Positions 25,920-41,282 of a stretch of 64,000 bases of DNA are shown here, piece after piece. The translations under genes and the position numbers were made by a program. Each line of letters starts with the position of its first letter. The stretch's first letter is position 1. Source of the stretch: Escherichia coli (GTDB lineage Bacteria > Pseudomonadota > Gammaproteobacteria > Enterobacterales > Enterobacteriaceae); NCBI RefSeq assembly GCF_017348835.2, contig NZ_CP071375.1. The stretch is one strand, 5' to 3'. A model generated the notes under the pieces. That model searched no databases, was not told where the DNA came from, and was given only the letters and a program-made list of their open reading frames with translations.

Positions 25920-26600
25920 CAAATGCGCCTATAAGGCTCTCTTACCAGCCGCGCCCTAACAGGCGCACACGATCTGACATTTGCATCCAACTTCGTTACT
26001 TACGGCCCGTAAACGGGCTGCCCGGATAGGGAATCGATAACTGCTCTACCATTTTATCCTCTTCAAGCTGGTGCTTTATGTAATCCTGTATCTTCGCCGT
26101 GTTCTTACCCACTGTATCGACGTAGTACCCTCTGCACCAGAACTCCCTGTTCCTGTATTTGAATTTCAAATCACCAAACTGCTCGTAAAGCATCAGACTG
26201 CTTTTCCCTTCCAGATATCCCATAAAGCCGGATACGCTCATTTTGGGCGGGATCTCCACAAGCATATGGATATGATCTGCACAGCATTCAGCTTCCAGAA
26301 TCCGTACACTTTTCCACTCACACAGCTTTCTCAAAATACTGCCTATTGCTCTACGCTTCTCTCTGTAGAACACCTGTCTTCGATATTTTGGCGCAAAAAC
26401 TATGTGATATTTACAGTTCCATCGGGTGTGCGCTAAGCTCTTTTCGTTCCCCATTGGGACCCCCTTTTGATTTCTTGTTTGACACTTGCAGTTGCCAGAC
26501 CGCAAGGTGTTTTAACAAATCAAAAGGGGTTTTAATAACTGGCTCAAAGCTGAAAGCTTTCCGGAACCCCCAGCCTAGCTGGGGGTTTTCTGTGCACAAG
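25920..26600 (-). mobile_element. IS200 insertion sequence (IS200/IS605 family); ends approximate
   Basis: Contains a 152-aa HuH tyrosine transposase and the characteristic IS200 5' leader hairpins; boundaries estimated to about +/-30 bp from the flanking pgm and potE terminators. Confidence 0.8.
25996..26454 (-). CDS. tnpA: IS200 transposase TnpA (HuH Y1 transposase)
   Basis: 152 aa from ATG 26454 (MGNEKSLAHTRWNCKYHIVFAPKYRR...) with HuH motif HIHML and catalytic Tyr in RGYYVDTVG; near-identical to the Salmonella IS200 TnpA from memory. Confidence 0.9.
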   Translation of the reverse strand: MGNEKSLAHTRWNCKYHIVFAPKYRRQVFYREKRRAIGSILRKLCEWKSVRILEAECCADHIHMLVEIPPKMSVSGFMGYLEGKSSLMLYEQFGDLKFKYRNREFWCRGYYVDTVGKNTAKIQDYIKHQLEEDKMVEQLSIPYPGSPFTGRK

Positions 26601-30488: not shown

Positions 30489-30592
30489 TTTAAAAGGGTT
30501 AGCAGTATATGAGCACCGAGGGATACAGGTATTAACCTGTAATGCTTAAAGTCAGGGAGACCTGTACGCTGGGGTGCCCTTTAGTCAGAAGA

Positions 30593-30697
30593 CTAGCGGG
30601 CATTAAAGAAATGAAAGTCAAAACTATTACGATGGGCAAACTTCATGATATGGGTTGTCCGCCTTATATGAGGCATTAAGCGGTTATTATTTTCCAT
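30593..30697 (-). CDS. speFL: speFL ornithine-sensing arrest leader peptide
   Basis: 34-codon ORF MENNNRLMPHIRRTTHIMKFAHRNSFDFHFFNAR ending in TAG; matches the described SpeFL arrest peptide. Confidence 0.8.
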   Translation of the reverse strand: MENNNRLMPHIRRTTHIMKFAHRNSFDFHFFNAR

Positions 30698-30892
30698 TTA
30701 CCTTTACCTCTTGCTGTGTCAGTTGAAGGTAGAGTTATTCTATCCATGAAATGGCTATAATCTGTGAAGAAGATCAACAAAAAACGATCATACCCCAGAT
30801 AATAAATCATTAATTATGAATAGCGCCATATTAGACGCTGTTTTGTTATTTAAATGTTGTAATTTTGTGTTTTATATTTGCGTTAAGAAATT

Positions 30893-30926
30893 AAACCTGC
30901 CAAATAATAATATTTGGTGCAGGTTT
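30893..30926 (-). terminator. probable kdpE terminator hairpin
   Basis: Imperfect hairpin aaacctgccaaata / tatttggtgcaggttt about 45 bp 3' of the kdpE stop, U-rich tail on the transcript. Confidence 0.5.
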
Positions 30927-30971
30927 AATAATAAATTAATCACTATTTAAGCGAATTTATTGAATAACAAT

Positions 30972-31649
30972 TCAAAGCATAAACCGATACCCAATACCGG
31001 TTTCAGTAATGAAATGGCGGGGGCGAGCGGGATCCTGTTCCAGTTTTTGTCGCAGATGTCCCATATAAATACGCAAATAATGACTGTGTTCGACCGCGTT
31101 TGGCCCCCACACCTGGTTAAGGAGTTGGCGCTGGGGGAGTACTTTTCCGGCGTTGTTGAGCAGCACTGCCAGCAGGCGAAACTCAATCGGGGTGAGGTGC
31201 ACCTCTTCCTCACCCCGGTGAATCACGCGGGCGGCTAAATCGACGGTAACATCGGAAAATTTCACTACCGGATCGGGCGCGGCAGTGGCTGAATGGCGGC
31301 GTAATGCGACGCGCAGACGGGCCTGCAATTCGCCAATGCCAAACGGCTTACTCAGATAATCATCCGCTCCGGCATCCAGCGCGGCGATTTTGTCGCTCTC
31401 TTCGCTGCGTGCGGAAAGCACTATCACCGGCACCGCGCTCCACTGGCGCAGGTCGCGGATAAACTCAATCCCATCACCATCGGGCAGGCCGAGATCGAGA
31501 ATAATCAAATCTGGCTTACGGGTTGCCGCTTCCAGCAAGCCGCGTTGCAGCGTTTCGGCCTCAAAGACGCGCATACCGTCGCCCTCCAGCGCCGTGCGCA
31601 GAAAGCGACGAATAGCCTGTTCATCTTCAACAATCAGAACGTTTGTCAC
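30972..31649 (-). CDS. kdpE: response regulator KdpE (OmpR family)
   Basis: 225-aa receiver plus winged-helix protein; the start codon is GTG at 31649, embedded in ATGTGA with the kdpD stop. Confidence 0.95.
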   Translation of the reverse strand: MTNVLIVEDEQAIRRFLRTALEGDGMRVFEAETLQRGLLEAATRKPDLIILDLGLPDGDGIEFIRDLRQWSAVPVIVLSARSEESDKIAALDAGADDYLSKPFGIGELQARLRVALRRHSATAAPDPVVKFSDVTVDLAARVIHRGEEEVHLTPIEFRLLAVLLNNAGKVLPQRQLLNQVWGPNAVEHSHYLRIYMGHLRQKLEQDPARPRHFITETGIGYRFML

Positions 31650-34330
31650 ATATCCTCATGAAATTCTTCAAGTTCAGGGGCAGTTTGCTGGGGAAGTGTA
31701 ACACGAAAACAGGCACCACCTTCCGGTCGGTTGAACGCGGTAATAGTGCCCCCGTGTACATCCACTATCTCCCGACAAATTGCCAGTCCAAGCCCTACCC
31801 CCGGTACTGCCGACTCTTTATTCCCGCGAGCAAACTTATCAAATATCGTCTGCTCCTGGCCTGGCGGAAGACCGGGGCCGTTATCCCAGACATCCAGTTG
31901 TAGATTTTCGCCCTCAACGTGGGCATCGATACCAATTTCGGCCTGCGCACCCGCATATTTCACCGCGTTCTCCAGCAGATTAATCAGCACCCGTTCAAAG
32001 AGTGGCCCGTCAACGTGGATTAAGGTCAGCGGTTCTGGCAGAGAAAGATTGATGGGCGACGATAAACCCGGTTCCAGCATTTGCAGCGCGCTGCCGACCA
32101 CTTCTTCCAGCGTTAACCACTCTTTCTTCAAATTAAAGCCGCCGGACTGAATTCGCGCCATATCCAGTAGATTATTCACCAGTCGGGTAGTGTTCAGCAC
32201 GTGCTGACGGATCTCGCTGGCCTGGCGGGCGTGGGGTGATCCTTCGCTTGCCAGATCGAGCGTTAAGATTTCTGCCTGACCAAACAGCACCGTAAGCGGA
32301 GTGCGTAAATCATGCGAAAGCGCCGCCAGCAGGGCGTTACGGATCTGTTCACGTTCGCTTGCCATCCGCGCCTGTTCTTCGCTGGCGGTCAGCGTCAGCC
32401 GCTCAAGCGCATTGGCGACTAACAGCGTAAACGTCTCCAGCAGGCGCTGCTGTTCCGGGATCATCAACTGACGCAGATTCCCCGGTTCCACCACCACCAG
32501 CCCGTAGGTTTTCTCACCGCTTTTTAACGGCAAAATCTGGTACGGCACGCCGGGTAACGTGTCGGTGCCCGCACCCGCAGGCAGGCCTTTATCAAAACTC
32601 CACTGCGCGATGGCATCGTCCCACGGCGTCATTCCTTGCGGATGTGTTAACGGCTGCAATTTACCGTTGTCATCGGGCAACAACACCTGACTGCGGGCAT
32701 GAAACGTGGAGGCAATAAATTGTTCGCTGGTGGCGGCGATGTCCTGCGGACTGCGGCCCACCGCCAGAGCTTTCGACATTTCATATAAGTGCCGTGTGCG
32801 TTGCTCGCGGTAACGGGCTACCCGCGCCTGATAACGCACACCCGCAGTAAGGTTCCCGATCACCAGCCCGACGGTTAACATCACCGCGAAGGTCAGCAGA
32901 TATTGCACATCAGAGACGGCGAGCGTGCCGCGTGGGGCGATAAAAAAGAGATCGAAACTCACCACATTAATGACGGTAGCAACCACCGAAGGCCAGCGTC
33001 CATAAAATAGCGCCACCACCACCACGCCAAGTAGATACAGCATCACCAGGTTGGCGGCATCAAACGCCATCAGCCACTGCATGGCAATTAAGGTGATAAC
33101 GGCGCATAACGCGGCGGCAACCACGCATCCCTGAATCTGTACCCGCCACTTGTCTTTAAAAGAGCGGCTATCCGGCGCGTTGTTAATCGTGCGGGCGGGT
33201 GGTTCATCAAGCGCGACCAGAACCTGATCGAGATCGGGGGCGATGCGCGCCAGCCGGTCAGCAAACGTTTCCCGACGCCACCAGCGGCGCGAGGCTGGGC
33301 GACCGAGAATAATCTTACCGAGATTATGTTCACGGGCATAACGCACTACCGCTTTCTCTTCCGCTGGATCAGAAAGTGTTGCCGTCTCCGCGCCCAGCTC
33401 CTGCGCCAGACGTAAGGCGCTGAGAATTGCCCGACGTTTTTTCTCCGGTAAGCGATGCAGGGCAGGGGTTTCAACATACACCGCGTGCCAGACGCTCCCC
33501 AGCCGTGACGCCAGCCGCGCCGCCGCGCGGACCAGTTTTTCGCTGCCGGTGTTATGGCCGATGCATAAAAGGATCGCGTCGCGCGTGTGCCAGACTTTCT
33601 CTTCGCCAGGATGCCCCCGCCAGGCGCGCATTTGCTCATCAACGCGATCGGCAGTACGGCGCAGTGCCAGTTCGCGCAGGGCGATCAGATTGCCTTTGCG
33701 GAAAAAATGTTCAATGGCGCGCTCCGCCTGCCCGGCAATATAGACTTTGCCTTCTTTCAGCCGCTGGCGCAGATCGTCCGGGGGCAAGTCCACCAGAACC
33801 ACGTCGTCGGCGGCATCGAAAAAAGGATCGGGCACGGTTTCCCGTACCTGAATTCCGGTGACGCCGCTGACCACATCATTCAGGCTTTCCAGATGTTGAA
33901 CGTTGACGGTAGTGAAAACATCAATACCAACTTCCAGCAGTTCTTCGATATCCTGCCAGCGTTTGGGATGACGGGAACCTGGCGCATTACTGTGCGCCAG
34001 TTCGTCCATTAAGATCAGCGCCGGGCGGCGGGCGAGGGCGGCATCGAGATCAAACTCGCTTATATGCCGCCCACGGTACGCCTGGCGTTTTAACGGCAGA
34101 ACAGCCAGCCCTTCCAGCATGGCGGCGGTATCTTTTCGCCCGTGGGTTTCTACCACGCCAACCACAATATCCAGCCCTTGCGCCCGCAGTCGCTGGGCTT
34201 CTGCCAGCATCGCCCAGGTCTTCCCGACGCCTGCGCAGGCACCGAAGAAAACTTTCAGCTTCCCCCGATGCGGCGCGGCAGTTTGTTCCAGCAGACGATC
34301 GGGGTCGGGACGTAAGGGTTCGTTATTCAT
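31646..34330 (-). CDS. kdpD: sensor histidine kinase KdpD
   Basis: 894 aa from ATG 34330 ([14 protein letters not shown]); KdpD N-terminal domain, four TM helices and a HisKA/HATPase core; start overlaps the kdpC 3' end by 8 nt. Confidence 0.93.
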
Positions 34331-34895
34331 CAAGTTTATCCAGCGCCAGATTGAGTTCGACAATGTTGACGATCGGCTGGCCGATATATTTCACCAGTGG
34401 TTGTTGGCTGTATTTTGCGATCAGTTGCGTGAGCTGTTCAACGCTGAGATTACGCGCTTTCGCTACGCGTGGGATCTGCCAGGCCGCCGCTTGTGGGGTG
34501 ATGTTATTGTCCAGCCCGCTTGCCGACGCCGTCACCAGTTCAACCGGAACGTTCGCGCTGGCATCCGGGTTAGTGGCCCGTAATGCAGCAACGCGTGCGG
34601 CTATTAGTTTATTCAGCTCAGGGTTACTGACTGCCAGATTGCTCCCGCCAGAAGCCTGTGGATTATAGGGCATTTCTGCCGTTGCCGACGGGCGACCATG
34701 AAAATAGCCGTTGCCGGTAAAATTCTGCCCGATTAATGCCGAACCGCGCACCGTATCACCTTCACGAATCAACGAACCATTGGCCTGCCAGGGAAACCAC
34801 CATTGCCCCAGCACGGTGGTCAGCAGCGGGTAAACGCCGCCAGTAATCAATAACAGAAAGATAAATGTCGATAATGCCGGACGTAATCCACCCAT
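34323..34895 (-). CDS. kdpC: K+-transporting ATPase subunit C
   Basis: 190 aa from ATG 34895 ([16 protein letters not shown]), single N-terminal TM helix. Confidence 0.9.
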
Positions 34896-34903
34896 GGTAA
34901 ACC

Positions 34904-36952
34904 TCACACCAGACCGCAAACGGTCAGCAGTAAATCAATGACTTTGATACCAATAAACGGCACCAGCAGCCCACCCAGACCGTAAATCCATAAGTTACGG
35001 CGCAACATGGCAGAAGCGGTAAGCGGTTTATAACTCACGCCTTTTAACGCCAGGGGAATCAAAAAGACGATAATCAAGGCGTTGAAAATAACCGCACTGA
35101 GAATGGCGGAGTCGGGCGAATGCAGGCGCATGATGTTCAGCGCATTTAACTGCGGATACGTTACCGCGAATGCCGCCGGAATAATGGCGAAGTATTTCGC
35201 CACATCGTTGGCAATGCTGAAGGTGGTCAGCGAGCCACGGGTCATCAGCATCTGTTTGCCAATATGTACCACCTCGATCAACTTGGTCGGGTTAGAGTCG
35301 AGATCCACCATATTGCCCGCTTCTTTCGCCGCCTGAGTACCAGAGTTCATCGCCACCGCGACATCTGCCTGCGCCAGCGCCGGAGCATCGTTGGTGCCGT
35401 CGCCGGTCATCGCTACCAAACGGCCTTCCGCCTGATACTGACGGATCAATGCCAGCTTGGCCTCCGGTGTCGCTTCGGCGAGAAAATCATCGACGCCCGC
35501 TTCCGCGGCAATGGCGGCGGCAGTCAGACGGTTATCGCCGGTAATCATCACCGTTTTAATACCCATTTTGCGCAGCTGGGCGAAGCGTTCTTTAATGCCG
35601 CCTTTGACGATATCTTTCAACGCAATAACGCCCAGCACACGAGAACCTTCCACCACTACCAGCGGCGTGGCTCCCTGACGCGCAACCTGATCGACTTTTT
35701 GATCAACATCGGCAGGGAAGTGACCACCGTTAGCCTCAACGTGGCGGCGAATGGCATCGACAGAACCTTTACGGATCATGCGGTTGTCGATGTTGATCCC
35801 GCTCATCCGGCTTTGCGCAGTAAACGGTACAAAGGTGGCATGGAGCGACTGCACATCGCGCTCGCGCAGGTTAAAACGCTGCTTGGCGAGGATCACAATA
35901 CTGCGGCCTTCCGGCGTTTCATCAGCCAGCGAAGCCAGTTGTGCGGCGTCAGCCAGCGTTTTTTCATCCACGCCCTGCGCAGGGATAAACTCCGATGCCT
36001 GACGGTTACCGAGCGTGATGGTGCCGGTTTTATCCAGCAGCAAGACGTCAACGTCACCCGCCGCTTCAACCGCCCGCCCGCTGGTGGCAATCACATTCGC
36101 GCCCAGCATCCGACTCATCCCGGCGACGCCGATCGCTGACAACAGGCCGCCAATAGTGGTTGGGATCAGACAGACCAGCAGCGCCACCAGTACCGTTACG
36201 CTGACTGCATTACCGCCCCACGCGGAAAACGGCCACAGTGTGGCGGTTGCCAGTAAAAAGACGATAGTCAGGGCAATCAGCAGGATGGTCAGGGCAATCT
36301 CGTTCGGCGTTTTGCGTCGCTGTGCGCCTTCCACCATCGCGATCATCCGATCCAGAAATGTCTCGCCGGGGTTAACGCTACACTCAATCACCAGCCAGTC
36401 AGAAAGAATACGCGTGCCGCCGGTGACGGAGGCAAAATCGCCGCCGGATTCACGGATCACCGGTGCCGATTCCCCGGTGATGGCGCTTTCATCGACCGAT
36501 GCGCCGCCTTCAATGACTTCACCATCGCAGGGGATAATATCGCCAGCTTCTACCAGCACGATGTCACCTTTACGCAGTTGATCGGCAGGAACTTTGTCTG
36601 CCACAGCGCCATATTTCGGTTCGCGCAGCTTGCGAGCAAAAGCAGTTTTTTTCACTCCTTTCAGACTGTTGGCCTGCGCTTTACTGCGGCCTTCTGCCAG
36701 CGCCTCGGCGAAATTAGCGAACAGTACGGTGATCCACAGCCAACCGCTAATGGCCGCGCTAAACAGCGCATTGCCGGGCATCGCACCGCTTGCCATCGCG
36801 ATGCTAATACAGGTGGTCAGCAGACTGCCGATCCAGACGATAAACATCACCGGATTGCGCCATTGCGCCTGCGGGTTTAATTTTTTCACCGCTTCTTTCA
36901 GCGCCTGAACGACAAGTGTTGGTTCGAATAGCGCCAGTTGTTTACGACTCAT
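34904..36952 (-). CDS. kdpB: K+-transporting P-type ATPase subunit B
   Basis: 682 aa with phosphorylation motif DKTGT and hinge motif GDGTND. Confidence 0.97.
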
Positions 36953-36974
36953 ATTCAGTGCTCACTCAATATCA

Positions 36975-38648
36975 TCAGGAGAGATATTCCGCCACCGGAC
37001 CAAGCGCTAGGGCAGGGATAAAGGTCAGTGCGCCAACCAGCAACACGGTGCCGATTAACAGGCCAACAAACAGCGGGCCGTGCGTTGGCAGCGTGCCGGA
37101 GCTGGCGGGTTGGCTCTTTTTACTCACCAGCGAACCGGCAATTGCCATCACCGGGATAATCACCCCGAAGCGACCGACAAACATGCAGAACGCCAGTAAA
37201 CAGTTCCAGAACGGAGAGTTGGCGCTTAATCCGGCAAAGGCGCTGCCGTTGTTGTTAGCGGCGGATGACACGGCGTACAGCACTTCGCTAAAACCATGCG
37301 GGCCAGGGTTGAGCATGGCGCTACGTCCGGCGTCGGTCATCATCGCCAGCGCCGCGCCCATCAGCACCAGTGTTGGAGTAACCAGAATCGCCAGTGCAGT
37401 CAATTTCATCTCACGTACGTCGATTTTTTTACCCAGATATTCCGGTGTACGACCAATCATCAGCCCGGCAATAAACACCGCCAGCAGGACAAACAGCATC
37501 ATGCCGTAAAGACCAGAACCGACACCGCCGAATACCACTTCACCAATTTGCATCAGCCACATCGGCACCATGCCACCGAGAGCGGTAAACGAATCATGCA
37601 TCGCAATCACCGCGCCACAGGAAGCCGCCGTAGTCACGACCGCAAACAGGCTACTGACCAGCACGCCGAAACGGCTCTCTTTACCTTCCATATTGATGCT
37701 GCTGTCCGCGCCCAGTGCCAGCAGATGCGGATTACCCTGAACTTCTGCCCACATCACCACGCCTACGCAGATGACAAAAATCACTGACATCGCCCACAGC
37801 AACATGCGCCCCTGGCGGCGATCGCCCGTCACTTCACCAAAGGCAAAGCACAGCGCTGTTGGGATCAAGAAGATCGCCAGCATCTGCACGAAGTTGGTCA
37901 GTGCGGTTGGGTTTTCAAACGGATGCGACGAGTTGGCATTAAAGAAGCCACCGCCGTTAGTACCGAGCATCTTGATCGCTTCCTGAGAAGCTACTGGCCC
38001 CATGGGTAACAGCTGTTGCGCTCCTTCAACGGTATTCACTGCCTGATAGGGCAGAAAGTTTTGCAGCGCACCTTGTTGAATAAAAAACAGTGCGATCAAC
38101 AACGCCACAGGGACTAGCACCCATAACGTGATGCGTAGCAGATCGACCCAGGCATTCCCGAGTGTGCTCATGCTCTGGCGAGTAAACGCACGGATGAGGG
38201 CAAAAATCACCGCAATCCCGCTGGCGGCAGAAAGAAAGTTTTGTACCGTTAAGCCCGCCATCTGGCTGAAATAGCTCAACGTGGTTTCACCGCTATAAGA
38301 TTGCCAGTTGGTATTGGTGACAAAGCTGACGGCGGTATTCAGCGCCAGATCCCACGACAGCCCCGGCAACTGCTGTGGATTAAGCGGCAGATAGTGCTGA
38401 CCGAGCAACATAAAAAAAAGCACCGCCAGCCCCAGCATGTTCAGGCCGAGAATGGCACAGAGATATTGCTTCCAGTTCATCTCATGGTCAGAGACGCCAG
38501 GTAAACGAAAGAGTACGCGTTCAACGCCCGCTGTACCGGGAAGAGATATGTCATTAATCAGCCGTGCCAGCCCGCTGCCTAAAGGGCGCGCCAGCACCAT
38601 TAACACCAGTAAAAACGTGGCGATCAGTAAGAACCCTTGCGCAGCCAT
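36975..38648 (-). CDS. kdpA: K+-transporting ATPase subunit A
   Basis: The ORF track gives 605 aa; the conserved N-terminus [14 protein letters not shown] starts at ATG 38648 (557 aa). Confidence 0.93.
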
Positions 38649-38737
38649 CAGAACGCCTCCGCATTGATCAGGGCATAAACCAGATAACCCAGTAATAAAA
38701 ACACCAGCAATACGCCGGCTATCACGCCTGCACTCAC
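38648..38737 (-). CDS. kdpF: K+-transporting ATPase subunit F (small membrane peptide)
   Basis: 29 codons (M)[28 protein letters not shown] from GTG 38737, with a GGAGG Shine-Dalgarno 6 nt upstream; its stop TGA overlaps the kdpA ATG. Confidence 0.8.
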
Positions 38738-38814
38738 AGTGCACCTCCAGTGGCCTAAAAGTGATACCGGAAGGGTAGAATTCTGGCTGCAAAGATTTCG
38801 CAAAAATCTGCGGG

Positions 38815-38840
38815 TGGGGTGTAAAAAAAGTATAAAAATG
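38815..38840 (-). promoter_or_regulatory. KdpE binding site of the kdpFABC promoter
   Basis: Minus-strand sequence CATTTTTATACTTTTTTTACACCCC with direct half-sites TTTATA and TTTACA, about 80 bp upstream of kdpF. Confidence 0.6.
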
Positions 38841-39049
38841 GCAAAAGCCATGATTTAACTAATGTTTAGTATTAATTTAACTTTTGTGTAACTTAATTAC
38901 AGGGTGAATGTAAATAAACCATCAATAAGCAAAAATAAGTGGTCGGATGAGTAGTAAAATTACACAAAAGGCGGTACTATTTTCATCAGATAAACAAATT
39001 CATTTTTCCGGTGCTATTCACCGGGTAGATACAAAAGGGGGAGAAAAGT

Positions 39050-39256
39050 ATGGAACTCTACAGAGAATATCCTGCATGGCTTATCTTTTTACGCCGTACT
39101 TATGCGGTTGCAGCGGGCGTTCTGGCGCTGCCTTTCATGCTTTTCTGGAAAGACCGCGCCCGCTTTTACAGCTACCTGCATCGCGTCTGGTCGAAAACCA
39201 GCGATAAACCGGTGTGGATGGATCAGGCCGAAAAGGCAACTGGTGATTTTTACTGA
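39050..39256 (+). CDS. ybfA: small uncharacterized protein YbfA
   Basis: 68-aa [36 protein letters not shown]... with a good Shine-Dalgarno; recognised as YbfA. Confidence 0.8.
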
Positions 39257-39280
39257 TTGCTGAGTTCTGAATACATTGAA

Positions 39281-39311
39281 AACCGCTAGTGGAAACGCTG
39301 GCGGTTTTTTT
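39281..39311 (+). terminator. probable ybfA intrinsic terminator
   Basis: Hairpin aaccgc...gcggtt followed by a T7 run. Confidence 0.55.
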
Positions 39312-39357
39312 CTTTTCGCCGTCTACACTTACTCCTGTAAACCGTTCAGGAGCAGTA

Positions 39358-39867
39358 ATGAATCAGCAACGATTTGATGACAGCACCCTAATCCGTATCT
39401 TCGCCCTTCATGAGTTACATCGACTGAAAGAACATGGCTTAACGCGCGGGGCGCTTCTCGATTATCACAGCCGCTATAAACTCGTCTTTCTGGCTCATTC
39501 CCAGCCGGAATACCGCAAACTTGGCCCGTTCGTGGCTGATATTCACCAGTGGCAAAATCTGGATGACTATTACAACCAGTACCGCCAACGCGTAGTTGTT
39601 TTGCTTTCTCACCCCGCCAACCGACGTGACCACACCAACGTTTTGATGCACGTTCAGGGTTATTTTCGCCCGCATATTGATTCCACAGAACGCCAGCAGC
39701 TGGCTGCGCTTATCGACAGTTATCGCCGTGGCGAGCAACCGCTTCTTGCGCCGCTGATGCGTATCAAACACTATATGGCGCTTTATCCTGACGCCTGGCT
39801 TTCAGGGCAGCGTTATTTCGAACTTTGGCCGCGTGTGATTAACTTGCGCCATTCAGGAGTTTTATGA
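39358..39867 (+). CDS. ybgA: DUF1722-family protein YbgA
   Basis: 169 aa from ATG 39358 (MNQQRFDDSTLIRIF) with an AGGAG Shine-Dalgarno; the ORF-track start at 39289 would read through the ybfA terminator. Confidence 0.85.
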   Translation: MNQQRFDDSTLIRIFALHELHRLKEHGLTRGALLDYHSRYKLVFLAHSQPEYRKLGPFVADIHQWQNLDDYYNQYRQRVVVLLSHPANRRDHTNVLMHVQGYFRPHIDSTERQQLAALIDSYRRGEQPLLAPLMRIKHYMALYPDAWLSGQRYFELWPRVINLRHSGVL

Positions 39868-41282
39868 CTACCCATCTGGTCTGGTTTCGCCAGGATTTAC
39901 GTCTGCATGATAATCTCGCGCTGGCTGCCGCCTGCCGCAATTCGTCTGCACGCGTGCTGGCGTTGTATATCGCTACACCACGCCAGTGGGCGGCGCATAA
40001 TATGTCGCCGCGTCAGGCTGAACTTATCAATGCTCAACTGAACGGGCTACAAATCGCGCTGGCGGAAAAAGGCATTCCTTTATTGTTCCGTGAAGTGGAT
40101 GACTTTGCCGCCAGCGTCGAAATAGTTAAACAGGTGTGCGCGGAAAACAGCGTTACTCATCTTTTTTATAACTATCAGTATGAGGTGAATGAGCGGGCGC
40201 GGGATGTGCAGGTTGAGAGAACGCTGCGTAACGTGGTGTGTGAAGGATTTGATGACAGCGTGATCCTGCCGCCTGGCGCGGTGATGACCGGCAATCATGA
40301 GATGTACAAAGTCTTTACGCCTTTTCAAAATGCCTGGCTGAAACGGCTGCGGGAAGGGATGCCGGAGTGCGTCGCTGCACCAAAAGTTCGTAGTAGCGGA
40401 TCGATAAAGCCCGCGCCATCAATTACGCTGAATTATCCTCGTCAGTCTTTCGATACTGCGCATTTTCCGATGGAAGAAAAAGCGGCGATTGCGCAATTAC
40501 GCCAGTTTTGCCAGAACGGTGCCGGAGAATATGAGCAACAACGAGATTTTCCGGCAGTTGAAGGCACCAGCCGTTTGTCCGCCAGCCTGGCAACGGGCGG
40601 GTTATCACCTCGCCAGTGTTTGCATCGCCTGTTGGCGGAACAGCCGCAGGCGCTGGACGGTGGGGCCGGTAGTGTCTGGCTTAGTGAGCTGATCTGGCGC
40701 GAGTTCTACCGTCATCTGATGACGTATTACCCCTCGTTGTGTAAACATCGTCCATTTATTGCCTGGACGGATCGTGTGCAGTGGCAAAGCAATCCCGCCC
40801 ATTTAAAGGCCTGGCAGAAAGGCAAAACGGGATACCCGATTGTTGATGCCGCTATGCGTCAGCTTAACAGCACTGGCTGGATGCATAACCGGCTACGGAT
40901 GATTACAGCCAGTTTTCTGGTGAAAGATTTGTTGATCGACTGGCGCGAAGGCGAGCGATATTTCATGTCGCAGCTGATTGATGGTGATTTGGCAGCCAAT
41001 AACGGTGGCTGGCAGTGGGCGGCTTCTACGGGTACTGATGCAGCGCCGTATTTTCGTATTTTCAACCCGACAACCCAGGGCGAGAAATTTGACCGCGAAG
41101 GCGAGTTTATCCGCCAGTGGCTACCGGAACTACGCAATGTACCGGGGAAATCGGTGCATGAGCCGTGGAAGTGGGCGCAGAAAGCAGGTGTGAAGCTGGA
41201 TTATCCGCAACCGATAGTCGAGCACAAAGAGGCGAGAGTACAAACGTTGGCAGCGTATGAGGCGGCGCGGAAGGGGAAATAA
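39864..41282 (+). CDS. phr: deoxyribodipyrimidine photolyase
   Basis: 472-aa ORF with photolyase N-terminal and FAD-binding domains; ATGA overlap with ybgA. Confidence 0.95.
   Translation: MTTHLVWFRQDLRLHDNLALAAACRNSSARVLALYIATPRQWAAHNMSPRQAELINAQLNGLQIALAEKGIPLLFREVDDFAASVEIVKQVCAENSVTHLFYNYQYEVNERARDVQVERTLRNVVCEGFDDSVILPPGAVMTGNHEMYKVFTPFQNAWLKRLREGMPECVAAPKVRSSGSIKPAPSITLNYPRQSFDTAHFPMEEKAAIAQLRQFCQNGAGEYEQQRDFPAVEGTSRLSASLATGGLSPRQCLHRLLAEQPQALDGGAGSVWLSELIWREFYRHLMTYYPSLCKHRPFIAWTDRVQWQSNPAHLKAWQKGKTGYPIVDAAMRQLNSTGWMHNRLRMITASFLVKDLLIDWREGERYFMSQLIDGDLAANNGGWQWAASTGTDAAPYFRIFNPTTQGEKFDREGEFIRQWLPELRNVPGKSVHEPWKWAQKAGVKLDYPQPIVEHKEARVQTLAAYEAARKGK

Follow-up and report, generated by a model that had tools for sequence, protein, structure and literature searches.

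The 64,000-nt stretch of DNA analysed in this work (hereafter, the window) almost certainly harbors, on its minus strand, an ordinary Escherichia coli kdpFABCDE locus with the regulatory logic already known for it. Both the kdp control region and the gene layout have long been studied, and nothing in them is new. An earlier note on this DNA had drawn attention to the span 38648-38840, which runs from the kdpF stop codon through the KdpE box, and had listed a KdpE operator, non-ATG start codons, and a series of gene overlaps; reading the reverse complement and translating the coordinates, we retrieved all these elements at the coordinates given, on the minus strand. The genes of the locus are the following:

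38648-38737, minus strand: kdpF, 90 nt, with a GTG start and 29 codons plus TGA; the product is V(M) followed by 28 residues
36975-38648, minus strand: kdpA, ATG start, base 38648 in common with the kdpF stop (TIGR00680)
34904-36952, minus strand: kdpB, P-type ATPase subunit, 682 aa (TIGR01497)
34323-34895, minus strand: kdpC, 190 aa, its last 8 nt within kdpD (TIGR00681)
31646-34330, minus strand: kdpD, sensor kinase, 894 aa (NF007793)
30972-31649, minus strand: kdpE, response regulator, 225 aa, GTG start (NF007820)

The four genes coding for the subunits of the KdpFABC complex are arranged in the order F, A, B, and C, and those for KdpD and KdpE lie directly downstream of kdpC. All six gene products matched end-to-end the respective NCBIfam equivalog models, above the curated cut-offs: KdpF with NF011332 (74.3 bits, cut-off 56, residues 1-29 of 29), KdpA with TIGR00680 (1003 bits, cut-off 388, full length), KdpB with TIGR01497 (1280 bits, cut-off 528, full length), KdpC with TIGR00681 (331 bits, cut-off 153, full length), KdpD with NF007793 (1832 bits over 1-894), and KdpE with NF007820 (483 bits over 1-225 of 225). 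The 501 bp around the span 38648-38840 are present in 5423 out of 5426 complete E. coli genomes; every match listed for this region has annotations for kdpF, kdpA, and ybfA. Furthermore, the whole window is the reverse complement of positions 3402144-3466143 of E. coli PE164, except for one base at 40698; the kdp operon shares 100% identity with that of PE164, and its gene boundaries and start codons are those of the PE164 RefSeq annotation. The single difference between the two falls in codon 279 of phrB, which is CGC (Arg) in the window and AGC (Ser) in PE164.

The comparison with the kdp locus of E. coli K-12 MG1655 (b4513, b0698-b0694), proposed by the earlier note as a check, revealed the same gene order, gene boundaries and lengths, start and stop codons, and KdpE box. 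Four of the five junction strings are identical letter for letter, and the fifth (kdpB/kdpC) differs only at kdpC codon 2 (S2G). The 336-bp promoter/intergenic stretch shows three differences, none of which is located in the KdpE half-sites, the Shine-Dalgarno sequence, or the start codon. As for the proteins, KdpF carries T7A, and KdpA, KdpB, KdpC, KdpD, and KdpE carry 8, 4, 5, 3, and 3 substitutions, respectively; these differences are ordinary allelic substitutions. The view that nothing in the locus is abnormal was right.

Two features of the variable sites can be recorded. Five of the eight KdpA substitutions (P35S, T40A, A49L, L50P, and R55H, two of them adjacent) are within residues 35-55 (window positions ~38484-38546, minus strand). 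The KdpE allele, which differs from that of K-12 by T123A, L128V, and T172P (the latter in the DNA-binding domain), is rare, being found on 30 contigs versus at least 1000 for the K-12 allele.

In order to compare the locus across species, one genome per species was scanned with a degenerate DNA pattern for an 11-residue KdpF motif; the scan yielded 85 loci, almost all from Enterobacterales, and 81 of them harbor a 29-codon kdpF homologue, the species picked by this match being close relatives rather than independent samples. The kdpF stop codon TGA (38650-38648) and the kdpA ATG (38648-38646) have base 38648 in common, forming the TGATG overlap that had been described for this DNA; the same junction is TGATG in 76 and TAATG in 5 of the 81 species. 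The next two junctions are without overlap, with gaps of 22 nt (kdpA/kdpB) and 8 nt (kdpB/kdpC). The 8-nt overlap claimed for kdpC and kdpD is also there, since the last base of kdpC is 34323 and the first of kdpD is 34330; its sequence is ATGAATAA, and the junction is identical in K-12. This overlap is found in only four loci, apparently belonging to Escherichia to judge from the kdpC start-junction sequences, and the other genera have gaps or abutting genes. Lastly, the kdpD TGA (31648-31646) and the kdpE GTG (31649-31647) form the string ATGTGA, with a 4-nt overlap, so that kdpE does start on a GTG inside the kdpD stop, as in K-12; the GTGA overlap is shared by 17 of the 19 species in which this junction was captured. 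The geometry at TGATG (F/A), GTGA (D/E), and the 8-nt C/D overlap is like that of translationally coupled overlaps in bacterial operons, although only the first two are kept across genera and the third is limited to the four loci mentioned above. Judging from the geometry of the overlaps, translational coupling at these three points may be proposed.

The region upstream of kdpF includes the following elements:

38820-38836, minus strand: KdpE operator, with half-site S1 TTTATA (38836-38831), spacer CTTTT, and half-site S2 TTTACA (38825-38820)
38744-38748, minus strand: Shine-Dalgarno sequence GGAGG, 6 nt before the kdpF GTG
38849-38851, minus strand: upstream in-frame ATG of a spurious 67-aa ORF (38851-38648), located upstream of the KdpE box

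The two KdpE half-sites that had been indicated upstream of kdpF are present at 38836-38820 and correspond to the published S1 and S2, that is, TTTATA and TTTACA with a 5-bp spacer (PMC3264566; Narayanan et al. 2012), two 6-bp direct repeats, both beginning with TT, to which a KdpE dimer binds (PMC3264566). The 21-bp minimal KdpE site of the kdpFABC-BS described in the same work (PMC3264566) is unchanged in the window; with respect to K-12, one G-to-A change is located 6 bp downstream of S2. A passage of that paper, citing Sugiura 1992, places the KdpE footprint at -72 to -50 of the kdpFABC transcription start (PMC3264566), and genomic SELEX retrieved a single KdpE target, i.e., the kdpF/ybfA spacer (PMC5934670). 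[quoted passage not shown]

In principle, TTTATA-N5-TTTACA might be a chance match in AT-rich intergenic DNA with no functional operator. By itself the motif is only moderately rare, and when one mismatch is allowed, at least one match is retrieved in 18 out of 100 shuffles of the window; the exact pattern, on the other hand, occurs once in the 64 kb and in none of 100 shuffles, and its letters are identical to those of a biochemically mapped site (PMC3264566). Moreover, the box (with no more than two mismatches) is found in 79 of 80 species at a distance of 79-84 nt from the kdpF start codon, the mode of 82 nt being the window's own value, and it is kept even in species whose sequence further upstream has wholly diverged. 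It is this conservation of position, and not the motif alone, that makes a chance origin next to impossible, and we consider the box as the KdpE operator.

The claim that kdpF is a 29-codon gene starting on GTG was borne out as well: the gene spans 38737-38648, the match with NF011332 covers residues 1-29, and GTG is the start codon also in K-12. A 29-aa KdpF chain is part of the KdpFABC complex in 25 PDB entries, and the product of the window departs from it at a single residue (T7A). At the position corresponding to 38737, 77 of the 81 species have GTG and the other 4 have ATG, with GGAGG(TG) at the same 6-nt spacing before it in nearly all of them. That GTG is so widely retained would agree with selection favouring a weaker start, a phenomenon known in general.

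Other start sites have to be considered for the two genes beginning with GTG. The reading frame of kdpF is open from 38851 to 38648, and about 700 contigs, as well as UniProt-type entries, list a 67-residue protein starting at the upstream ATG; in addition, a promoter directed towards kdp has been guessed computationally about 220 nt upstream of kdpF in an RpoD SELEX paper (PMC3946193) and, if real, it would put this ATG inside a transcript. The ATG at 38851, however, precedes the KdpE operator and hence also the mapped promoter, and there is no Shine-Dalgarno sequence before it. The 38 additional codons are unconserved: the in-frame ATG exists in only 13 of the 81 species, in 14 the frame is closed by a stop one codon ahead of the GTG, and in many others a stop occurs within 10 codons before it, without any alternative start. 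The curated model, like the PDB chains, is 29 aa long. The extended protein has very little chance of being the genuine one. A peptide shorter than 29 residues would result from an internal start, for which candidate in-frame codons do exist (GTG at codon 5, TTG at codon 10, and GTG at codon 12), and the TIGR02115 model spans residues 6-29 only. Nevertheless, only the first GTG has GGAGG at the optimal distance of 6 nt, both being near-invariant in the 81 species; NF011332 aligns with residues 1-29, the KdpF sequences in the PDB begin at Met1, and a start at codon 10 or 12 would cut away much of the single membrane helix. This makes an internal start highly improbable, albeit marginally less so than the extended form.

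As for kdpE, a start at its first ATG (codon 26) would yield a 200-residue protein, which is indeed recorded on 42 contigs, e.g., in E. coli P12b. The receiver domain of such a protein would lack its first 25 residues and, with them, the conserved acidic segment IVEDE. NF007820 aligns over 1-225 of 225, and the chains of the crystal structures 4KNY, 4KFC, and 1ZH2 begin with MTNVL. Furthermore, a GTG preceded by GAGG is the start in 19 out of 19 species with the junction captured, the three bases before the GTG varying freely. We therefore regard the shorter KdpE as hardly credible, to the same degree as the 67-residue KdpF, and retain the GTG codons at 38737 and 31649 as the starts of kdpF and kdpE.

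When K+ is limiting, KdpE is phosphorylated by the sensor kinase KdpD; the midpoint of the KdpE repeats is about 60 bp ahead of the transcription start, and KdpE, once bound, turns on a sigma-70 promoter that is otherwise weak. Two further elements of the window are located between the operator and kdpF:

38789-38807, minus strand: ATTTTTGCGAAATCTTTGC, a conserved block after the KdpE box and before the -10; a putative weak -35 region
38772-38777, minus strand: -10-like hexamer TACCCT, with TAC conserved

The block ATTTTTGCGAAATCTTTGC has 96% identity in the species bearing ybfA and 63% in more distant ones. Scanning 38600-39100 for the sigma-70 consensus gave no match, a result that is uninformative except for being consistent with an activator-dependent promoter; the succession of the block (38807-38789) and TACCCT (38777-38772) would fit the same picture of a weak promoter of this type. 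On the basis of the published footprint at -72 to -50, the kdp transcription start is predicted at ~38765-38769, in agreement with the position of the -10-like hexamer, and the leader would measure about 30 nt.

According to this arrangement, at low K+ KdpD would phosphorylate KdpE, a KdpE dimer would occupy S1 and S2, and the weak kdpFABC promoter would be activated. Translation of the 29-residue membrane peptide KdpF would then begin at the GTG at 38737, 6 nt past GGAGG, and ribosomes stopping at the kdpF TGA may restart at the overlapping kdpA ATG (TGATG). The ATGAATAA (kdpC/kdpD) and GTGA (kdpD/kdpE) junctions might likewise be sites of termination-reinitiation coupling, and such a coupling would tie the synthesis of the regulators to read-through from the genes of the pump.

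A regulatory RNA structure in this region was also considered. The predicted leader together with kdpF folds no better than shuffled sequences (z = -0.43), and a leader structure or attenuator was rejected; no Rfam family matched at E <=1 in 30500-39400, and none reached the gathering threshold in the kdp region. A terminator-like hairpin inside kdpF (38719-38703, minus strand) is weak (-8.5 kcal/mol, z = -1.9) and was taken as a chance occurrence, its T-run being made of kdpF Phe and Leu codons. Similarly, the terminator-like palindrome ATGGCTTTTGCCAT (38851-38838, minus strand), just upstream of the KdpE box, was discarded, as its complementarity is lost in other species, e.g., GGCAAAGACCAT.

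On the other side of the control region lies ybfA, and the spacer between the two genes embeds additional conserved elements:

39050-39256, plus strand: ybfA (DUF2517, 68 aa), divergent from kdpF
38852-38894, minus strand as written, acting on ybfA (plus strand): ArcA site of ybfA, three GTTA repeats with 11/22-bp phasing
38935-38990, plus strand: second conserved block, ybfA core promoter, with the -10-like hexamer TACTAT at 38975-38980
39008-39024, plus strand: hairpin CCGGTG-CTATT-CACCGG in the ybfA 5' leader, 39008-39013 pairing with 39019-39024

In 58 of 72 loci, ybfA is the divergent neighbour of kdpF, with the spacer held at about 308 nt (range 292-416); the two genes are a conserved pair with a common control region. 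What follows ybfA is different in K-12, where rhsC comes next, whereas in the window rhsC is absent and ybgA comes directly after ybfA, with 39257-39357 between them.

The conservation profile of the spacer in 76 species revealed two long non-coding blocks upstream of the KdpE box, at 38900-38852 and 38990-38935. Where ybfA is missing, the KdpE box persists (88% identity) but the blocks do not (34-35% identity, versus 86% in species with ybfA); for this reason, the blocks can be assigned to ybfA and not to kdp. The GTTA repeats with 11/22-bp phasing in the first block suggested ArcA. According to the ArcA regulon study (Park 2013, PMC3798270), ybfA is directly activated by ArcA, and the site reported in its supplement, AAGTTACACAAAAGTTAAATTAATACTAAACATTAGTTAAATC, spanning -136 to -94 relative to the ybfA start, corresponds exactly to window positions 38894-38852. 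The site ends 15 bp from the half-site S1, and 42-45 of 45 Enterobacteriaceae species retain its three repeats. On the numbering of the ArcA site in PMC3798270, the transcription start of ybfA should be at ~38988, 8 nt past the conserved TACTAT (38975-38980).

The second block includes the invariant run TGGTCGGATGAGTAGTAAAATTAC (38940-38963, plus strand), at about -48 to -25 of ybfA. A 12-codon upstream ORF, MSSKITNKAVLF, was evaluated as a possible reason for the invariant block before ybfA and was rejected, because AGG replaces ATG in 5 of 45 species and the conservation is without codon periodicity. The hairpin of the ybfA leader lies some 25 nt ahead of the start codon of the gene and, in the 45 species, shows compensatory changes at five of its six pairs, with 93% pairing and none of 500 shuffles reaching the observed value; no T-run follows the stem on either strand. 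A more extended structured RNA across the ybfA leader was discarded, since RNAalifold gives this single hairpin.

Relative to the kdp start, the three-repeat ArcA array spans about -85 to -127, and throughout Enterobacteriaceae it is conserved along with the KdpE box. One might then imagine that phosphorylated ArcA bound to the ybfA array modulates the KdpE-dependent activation of kdpFABC and that the kdp control region extends further upstream; high-affinity uptake of K+ would in this way be linked to the redox state or to anaerobiosis. The ArcA study was carried out under conditions in which kdp is silent (PMC3798270). Against such a crosstalk, species without ybfA keep the KdpE box and lose the ArcA array, and insertions of 36-80 nt separate the array from the box in 4 of the 45 species. 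Overall, we consider this idea unlikely, and the array is best regarded as an element of ybfA.

Elsewhere in the window, a tnpA gene of the IS200/IS605 family (25996-26454) and an adjacent Rfam STnc490 RNA (26464-26587) are located between potE and pgm. Downstream of kdpE, RefSeq reports a 44-aa “hypothetical protein” (WP_001299172.1; 30676-30810, minus strand), which overlaps the beginning of speFL, a leader peptide gene.

The remark that the non-ATG starts of this locus are easy to miss in automated annotation finds support in public records, which contain both the 67-aa “KdpF” and the 200-aa “KdpE”. By exact-sequence look-up, the ATG-extended KdpF with the sequence of the window was found on 698 contigs, labelled for instance as “K+-transporting ATPase, F subunit”, in E. 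coli HS, E24377A, UTI89, and others; the KdpE starting from Met26 was found on 42 contigs. The correct 29-aa KdpF and 225-aa KdpE are each present on at least 1000 contigs, and current RefSeq/PGAP calls both genes correctly in every match listed. The true kdpF start can be recognized by a simple rule: GGAGG, 6 nt, and GTG, about 82 nt after the KdpE box, in a frame whose stop overlaps the kdpA ATG. The practical value of these observations lies in the quality control of annotations; they add little to biology, because every element described here represents textbook knowledge of E. coli K-12 found in another strain.
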